Shown in pieces: positions 1 through 475 of a DNA stretch of 475 nt (position 1 is the stretch's first letter; each line of letters begins with the position of its first letter). The notes beneath the pieces are model-generated. The model searched no databases, was not told where the DNA came from, and saw only the letters and a list, made by a program, of their open reading frames with translations. Made by a program: the position numbers and the translations under genes. The DNA comes from Escherichia coli (GTDB lineage: Bacteria > Pseudomonadota > Gammaproteobacteria > Enterobacterales > Enterobacteriaceae). The DNA lies in assembly GCF_003334385.1 (NCBI RefSeq), contig NZ_QOWN01000178.1. One strand, given 5' to 3'.

Positions 1-403
1 ATTCAGACAGGATACCACGTGTCCCGCCCTACTCATCGAGCTCACAGCATGTGCATTTTTGTGTACGGGGCTGTCACCCTGTATCGCGCGCCTTTCCAGA
101 CGCTTCCACTAACACACACACTGATTCAGGCTCTGGGCTGCTCCCCGTTCGCTCGCCGCTACTGGGGGAATCTCGGTTGATTTCTTTTCCTCGGGGTACT
201 TAGATGTTTCAGTTCCCCCGGTTCGCCTCATTAACCTATGGATTCAGTTAATGATAGTGTGTCGAAACACACTGGGTTTCCCCATTCGGAAATCGCCGGT
301 TATAACGGTTCATATCACCTTACCGACGCTTATCGCAGATTAGCACGTCCTTCATCGCCTCTGACTGCCAGGGCATCCACCGTGTACGCTTAGTCGCTTA
401 ACC
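1..403 (-). rRNA. rrl: 23S ribosomal RNA, 5' portion (about nt 1-403 of the mature rRNA, domain I); the gene continues beyond the window start
   Basis: The reverse complement of 403..1 begins GGTTAAGCGACTAAGCGTACACGGTGGATGCCCTGGCAGTCAGAGGCGATGAAGGACGTGCTAATCTGCGATAAGCGTCGGTAAGGTGATATGAACCG..., the canonical 5' end of Enterobacteriaceae 23S rRNA, and continues through GGGGAAACCCAGTGTGTTTCGACACACTATCATTAACTGAATCCATAGGTTAATGAGGCGAACCGGGGGAACTGAAACATCTAAGTACCCCGAGGAAAAGAAATCAACCGAGATTCCCCCAGTAGCGGCGAGCGAACGGGGAGCAGCCC (conserved domain I helices). The mature 5' end maps to window position 403 on the minus strand. The window ends inside the gene, so the feature is partial. Match is from memory of the reference, not an alignment. 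Confidence 0.95.
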
Positions 404-475
404 TCACAACCCGAAGATGTTTCTTACGATTCATCATCGTGTTGCGAAAATTTGAGAGACTCACGAACAACTTTC
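404..475 (-). other. 16S-23S internal transcribed spacer, 3'-terminal part (pre-23S leader), containing the 5' strand of the 23S processing stem
   Basis: Directly upstream of the mature 23S 5' end in the transcript, the minus strand reads GAAAGTTGTTCGTGAGTCTCTCAAATTTTCGCAACACGATGATGAATCGTAAGAAACATCTTCGGGTTGTGA, then GGTTAAGCG. This matches the spacer that precedes 23S in E. coli-type rrn operons. By established knowledge, the bases just upstream of mature 23S pair with sequence downstream of its 3' end to form the RNase III-cleaved processing stem. The exact cleavage site cannot be fixed from this window alone. Confidence 0.8.

Follow-up and report, generated by a model that had tools for sequence, protein, structure and literature searches.

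The stretch of DNA analyzed here (475 nucleotides of Escherichia coli, in the following called the window) comprises, on its minus strand, the transition from the 16S-23S spacer to the 23S rRNA gene of an rrn operon (Table 1). The 23S part matched the Rfam family RF02541 (LSU_rRNA_bacteria) with 322.8 bits (gathering score: 50), window positions 403-1 aligning to model positions 1-443, and "23S rRNA" is also the annotation in every matching E. coli record. With the Rfam 5′ end of the 23S rRNA at position 403, positions 404-475 are left for the spacer, which agrees with the length of 72 nt given in a preliminary description of this DNA. For positions within the RNA, a sense numbering is used in which sense 1 is window position 475, the mature 23S rRNA starting at sense 73 (window 403).

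All 475 nucleotides are identical to the rrnE operon of K-12 MG1655 (NC_000913.3, 4209971-4210445), the spacer part corresponding to 4209971-4210042 between gltV and rrlE. By its identity to annotated operons and its location between the spacer tRNA and the 23S rRNA gene, the window represents the 23S-side spacer block of an E. coli rrn operon. The annotated context of the matches is 16S, tRNA, 23S and 5S. The window was matched in all 5,426 complete E. coli genomes of the collection (5,426/5,426), and exactly in approximately 14-15% of the records, a share estimated from 9 of 60 evenly spaced ranks. A tRNA scan did not detect any tRNA within the 475 nt, the window ending 111-121 nt short of the spacer tRNA.

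Table 1. Features of the 475-nt window, with positions counted from its first nucleotide
Feature	Window position	Strand	Basis and remarks
Mature 23S rRNA, first 403 nt	1..403	-	Rfam RF02541; the gene runs on past window position 1
Leader-trailer (processing) helix, 5′ strand	396..423	-	Cofold; partner just after the 23S 3′ end, outside the window
Local hairpin predicted for the leader by itself (sense 27-74)	402..449	-	ViennaRNA; G-N-A-A loop at 424-427
GUUGUGA, 7 extra 5′ nucleotides on pre-23S after RNase III, trimmed later	404..410	-	Deduced from coordinates
16S-23S spacer, last 72 nt (5′ leader of the 23S precursor)	404..475	-	Directly upstream of the 23S 5′ end
StyR-44-type spacer fragment, 3′ part	411..475	-	RF01830, model positions 45-107
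14-mer GAATCGTAAGAAAC	419..432	-	Single exact match
Variable base (T in RNA sense, A on the plus strand)	426..426	-	Sense position 50; -23 from the mature 23S 5′ end

The equivalent 475 nucleotides of all seven rrn operons of K-12 MG1655 were compared with the window. No mismatch was found for rrnE, which carries the segment GAATCGTAAGAAAC. The operons rrnA, rrnB and rrnC possess the version GAATCGAAAGAAAC and revealed two, two and four mismatches, respectively, rrnH (GGATCGCAAGAAAC) showed three, and rrnG and rrnD contain a different, shorter block (CTCTGAAGTGAAAC). Within K-12, the window sequence is thus unique to rrnE, all other copies deviating by at least two mismatches. The spacers of rrnA, rrnB and rrnC resemble the window in block structure and leader, but have an A at sense position 50 (window 426), where the window has a T. 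One further spacer difference exists in rrnB at sense position 3 (window 473), and the further differences of rrnA and rrnC are located inside the 23S part.

The preliminary description had noticed that one segment of the spacer differs by a single base from a version ascribed to E. coli. Both versions are real: the ascribed one, GAATCGAAAGAAAC, is that of K-12 rrnA, rrnB and rrnC, and the single base is the one at window 426. The segment itself is present, but lies at 419-432 and thus begins one base outside the start that had been assigned to it (420). The suspicion that the window might differ from the E. coli reference does not hold. K-12 carries both versions, rrnE having the exact window sequence, so that there is no departure from the reference genome. 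As exact strings were compared, chance is not an issue for the one-base difference. Identity of the spacer to every reference rrn copy, which had been named as the outcome speaking against a variant, was not found either, since K-12 harbors four versions of the segment.

Differences between the K-12 copies also exist in the 5′ domain of the mature 23S rRNA. Compared to the window, rrnH differs at sense 336, rrnC at 357, 428 and 429, and rrnA at 388 (sense 336, 357, 388, 428 and 429 correspond to window 140, 119, 88, 48 and 47). UM146 combines several of these differences and deviates additionally at sense 155. The differences among the K-12 copies in this domain are intragenomic 23S microheterogeneity.

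The distribution of the alleles was determined in 5,426 complete E. coli genomes by use of queries of 55 nt centered on the variable base (position 28), an arrangement in which every 28-base megablast seed must include this base. A at sense 50 was the commonest allele (4,061/5,426 genomes, 17,811 places), followed by C, which was detected at about 11,283 places in approximately 2,970 of the 5,426 genomes. The T allele of the window was present in 1,154 of the 5,426 genomes at 2,730 places, with one to seven places per genome and a median of two. G was nearly absent (6/5,426 genomes, 14 places), none of its places being a full-length exact match. In the genomes with the C allele, the best match showed an identity of 99% or more to GAATCGCAAG in 2,357 genomes and to GGATCGCAAG in 758. 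Altogether, the collection contains 37,999 23S 5′ ends, of which some 6,160 are left after the four alleles; these presumably belong to the block of the rrnG/rrnD type. The figures for T bear out the expectation of the preliminary description that a real difference would be copy-to-copy or strain-level heterogeneity of a common kind. We are highly confident that the segment is the 23S-proximal spacer of an E. coli-type rrn operon and that the site at window 426 has three common alleles among copies and strains, namely A, C and the T of the window.

A few 23S 5′ ends of the collection were located at unusual sites. Ten places were found on plasmids, some genomes contained up to 19 places, and one match (H140), in a genome with 11 places, overlaps a feature annotated as 'RHS element protein'. 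The plasmid-borne, the surplus and the H140 ends could represent additional or incomplete rrn copies, or else assembly artefacts.

Due to the perfect match with K-12 rrnE, it is possible, if somewhat doubtful, that T is a fixed marker of rrnE and that the window stems from this operon, with the tRNA-Glu gene gltV lying a short way past position 475. This applies to K-12 MG1655 and strains derived from it: only rrnE has the window sequence there, with gltV located 121 nt upstream, and many of the 100% matches are K-12 laboratory strains at rrnE coordinates. A string search, however, confirmed the identical 475-mer at five loci. Besides rrnE of K-12 MG1655 (purH / yjaA; tRNA-Glu), these are rrnG of strain 300709 (clpB / kgtP; tRNA-Glu), rrnC of 2013C-4991 (yieP / hdfR; tRNA-Glu), rrnB of NCTC9080 (murI / murB; tRNA-Glu) and rrnH of SCPM-O-B-7615 (gmhB / dkgB), where the sequence follows tRNA-Ile and tRNA-Ala. 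Four of the five strains thus have tRNA-Glu beside the 475-mer and one has tRNA-Ile plus tRNA-Ala, and a restriction to the purH-yjaA locus was not found, the other strains carrying it at rrnG, rrnC, rrnH and rrnB. Moreover, the number of T copies per genome ranges from one to seven, strain EC06 having the allele in all of its rrn copies (7/7), and even in K-12 the allele does not track the type of the spacer tRNA. As a general rule, a fixed rrnE marker is refuted by these data.

Although there is no sequence difference between the window and the gltV-rrlE spacer plus rrlE 5′ end of K-12 rrnE (475/475), this identity is no proof of an origin from rrnE or from K-12, because rrn loci of other strains carry the same sequence, too. 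An operon can be identified by the window sequence only if the strain is known. The idea that the spacer could reveal the rrn copy is therefore valid inside K-12, where the sequence is unique to rrnE, but not across E. coli, where the identical 475-mer occurs at other loci. Hence, caution is necessary when a short piece of the 16S-23S spacer is assigned to an rrn copy outside a known strain.

The allele at this site was also compared with that of other enterobacteria. Species-representative genomes were searched in one scan with the variable base left open, which returned 24 loci. A occupies the site in Escherichia albertii, Enterobacter cloacae, Enterobacter mori, Citrobacter youngae, Citrobacter amalonaticus, Citrobacter sp. 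18056 and Phytobacter ursingii, C in Enterobacter sp. EA-1, and T, together with a G at sense 45, in Kluyvera ascorbata. Ungapped mismatch counts for distant genera, which are inflated by insertions and deletions, were left out. Since A predominates in those other Enterobacteriaceae that share the block, A is likely to be the ancestral state and T in E. coli a derived one, as far as the sequences allow this to be judged. A match in Salmonella was not expected because the loop of the Rfam consensus is 2 nt shorter.

The variant is quite unlikely to be a sign of a non-E. coli species or lineage, for instance Shigella or another enterobacterium. The spacer indeed varies between genera, and Kluyvera ascorbata has the T as well. 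This species, however, differs from the window at 32 of the 475 positions, while all 475 nt are found without any mismatch in about 14-15% of the complete E. coli records, K-12 included. Shigella as the source would leave the nature of the feature unchanged.

Some results of the scan deserve a comment. It returned no representative of E. coli, Shigella or E. fergusonii, although rrnA, rrnB, rrnC, rrnE and rrnH of K-12 as well as UM146 fit the search pattern; this gap may be due to the representative genome or to the index. Two contigs contained an rrn leader and 23S 5′ end that deviate from the window by a single base out of 475 (A allele), namely USBZ01000017.1 (L028, 13718-13748), filed as 'uncultured Desulfovibrio sp. 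UMGS1580', and JAHAYL010000010.1 (L029, 12804-12834), filed as 'MAG: Oxalobacter sp. MBin.057'. They look like E. coli contigs that were mis-binned into these metagenome-assembled genomes. An enterobacterial 23S leader was furthermore detected in the actinomycete Microbispora bryophytorum DSM 46710 on NZ_VIRL01000101.1 (L027, 177-207), a contig of 426 nt with a coverage of 0.83, which is probably the assembly of contaminant reads.

The position of the variable base is informative with regard to the processing of the precursor. RNase III cleaves E. coli pre-23S rRNA at -7 and -3, leaving seven or three extra nucleotides at the 5′ end (+7 and +3 ends; PMC11194073). Applied to the coordinates of the window, the -7 cut falls between positions 411 and 410. 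The variable base at -23 lies 16 nt upstream of this cut and consequently is removed with the excised spacer and never occurs in the ribosome.

The excised part corresponds to StyR-44, a 109-nt RNA encoded in seven copies upstream of the 23S gene in rRNA operons, for which Northern blot signals were obtained in Salmonella Typhi and E. coli and which is growth-regulated in both (PMC2943607). Its authors conceded that it might represent no more than a metastable intermediate of processing (PMC2943607). In the window (475-411), the RF01830 model reached 50.7 bits versus a gathering score of 54, the match being cut at its 5′ end by the window edge. In the identical rrnE locus of K-12 (L001, 1928-2036), StyR-44 was recovered in full length with 124.9 bits versus 54 and ends at -8. 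Like the leader in the window, it is situated directly 5′ of the 23S gene inside the rRNA operons. Its 3′ end (window 411; L001 2036) immediately precedes the RNase III -7 site, a coincidence which supports the view of StyR-44 as a spacer piece released by processing rather than a small RNA in its own right. The loop of the StyR-44 consensus is 2 nt shorter than that of E. coli. In the Rfam alignment, the variable base belongs to this 2-nt insertion, and the consensus has no position for it.

For the leader, two structures were predicted that are mutually exclusive. Leader-trailer helices are established in E. coli (PMC11404451). When the leader and the trailer of rrnE were cofolded, the latter taken from the identical K-12 locus and not from the window, 28 consecutive leader positions (sense 53-80) were paired at -68.8 kcal/mol, and the extended complementarity of a leader-trailer helix was thus found for rrnE. 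The variable base would be located 3 nt outside this helix, i.e. beside and not in it. Among the alleles, the cofold energies differed by no more than 1.4 of approximately 68 kcal/mol.

Folded alone, the leader is predicted by ViennaRNA to form a long local hairpin with -20.3 kcal/mol for all four alleles, in which the variable base was never paired. The predicted loop G49-N50-A51-A52 is closed by the pairs C48-G53 and U47-A54. Depending on the allele, it reads GUAA, GAAA or GCAA, and all three fit a GNRA sequence with a C-G closing pair, the predicted closing stem comprising 2 bp. The inner stem of the hairpin agrees with the consensus structure of Rfam StyR-44. Over 14 distinct enterobacterial sequences, 97.6% of the cells were paired and all seven variable pairs (7/7) changed on one side only, figures on which the controls say little: the 3′ strand never varies, so that compensatory changes are not visible, the shuffle control is uninformative, and the slid control is biased in favor of the hairpin as the structure was derived from one of the 14 sequences.

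G is nearly absent at window 426 despite the fact that GGAA is a GNRA loop, too. This scarcity could reflect selection against G, or G never arose. A small hairpin formed by sense 36-40 and 46-50 was considered as a pairing role for T and rejected, as the 36-50 pair is present in seven of the 14 sequences and 81 of 500 shuffles scored as high.

It is conceivable, but very improbable, that T is functional. An extra A36-U50 pair, predicted beside the leader-trailer helix, might slightly alter how fast RNase III processes the precursor or how long the excised StyR-44 fragment persists, so that T, A and C copies would behave differently. In the cofold, this pair at the base of the small hairpin has a predicted probability of 0.90 for T and of 0.00 for A, C and G, T gaining 1.4 kcal/mol. 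Among the 14 enterobacterial sequences, columns 36 and 50 are U-A in five and A-U in two, and StyR-44, as mentioned above, can be detected in both E. coli and Salmonella Typhi and is growth-regulated there (PMC2943607). On the other hand, the pair is missing in 7/14 sequences, the same score is reached by 81/500 shuffles, and A and C, the commonest E. coli alleles, are unable to form it. The energy change amounts to about 2% of the structure, StyR-44 is possibly nothing but the metastable intermediate considered by its authors (PMC2943607), and the allele moves freely among the operons. Most likely, the variable base has no measurable effect and is presumably neutral. An error can practically be dismissed, be it one of sequencing or assembly in the source or a mistake of the earlier reader: rRNA repeats are prone to assembly collapse, which counts for it, and the reader was unsure of the reference version, but in the finished K-12 genome T occurs in rrnE and A in the operons rrnA, rrnB and rrnC, and 1,154 complete genomes contain the T version, with 2,730 places in all.

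If T is regarded as one allele of a polymorphic spacer site, its history may be pictured as follows. A would be the ancestral base from which T arose by a point mutation. Gene conversion among the rrn copies, along with recombination between strains, may then have moved T through the seven operons, and both processes together would place the same 475-mer at different loci and beside different tRNA genes. The published rate of rrn gene conversion was obtained for the 16S and 23S genes themselves rather than for the spacer (PMC8022953); at this exact site, we infer gene conversion from the sequence patterns described above. In the precursor, the base would be either the free N of the predicted GNAA loop, as long as the leader folds alone, or a nucleotide 3 nt outside the long helix after pairing with the trailer. 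The first processing step would remove it as part of the StyR-44-type fragment, and it would never enter the ribosome. Since this portion of the precursor is discarded, a low consequence is sensible to expect, and the position of the base in a loop or at a junction is apparently unconstrained. T at window 426 can be considered an ordinary spacer allele of little consequence.

This kind of variation between rrn copies is already known. Variable blocks in the 16S-23S spacer were reportedly described in the 1990s in studies on the ECOR strain collection. As in the mosaic heterogeneity of the 16S-23S spacer and the concerted evolution of rrn operons, the alleles at window 426 are shared and shuffled among the seven operons independently of the tRNA type. 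Compared to the known mosaic variation, the site does not reveal anything different in kind; what is added are counts from 5,426 genomes for one site. For the assignment of operons or the typing of strains by single spacer bases, it should hence be expected that the copy number of an allele in E. coli ranges from 0 to 7, and that spacer alleles shift among the seven operons uncoupled from the type of the spacer tRNA.
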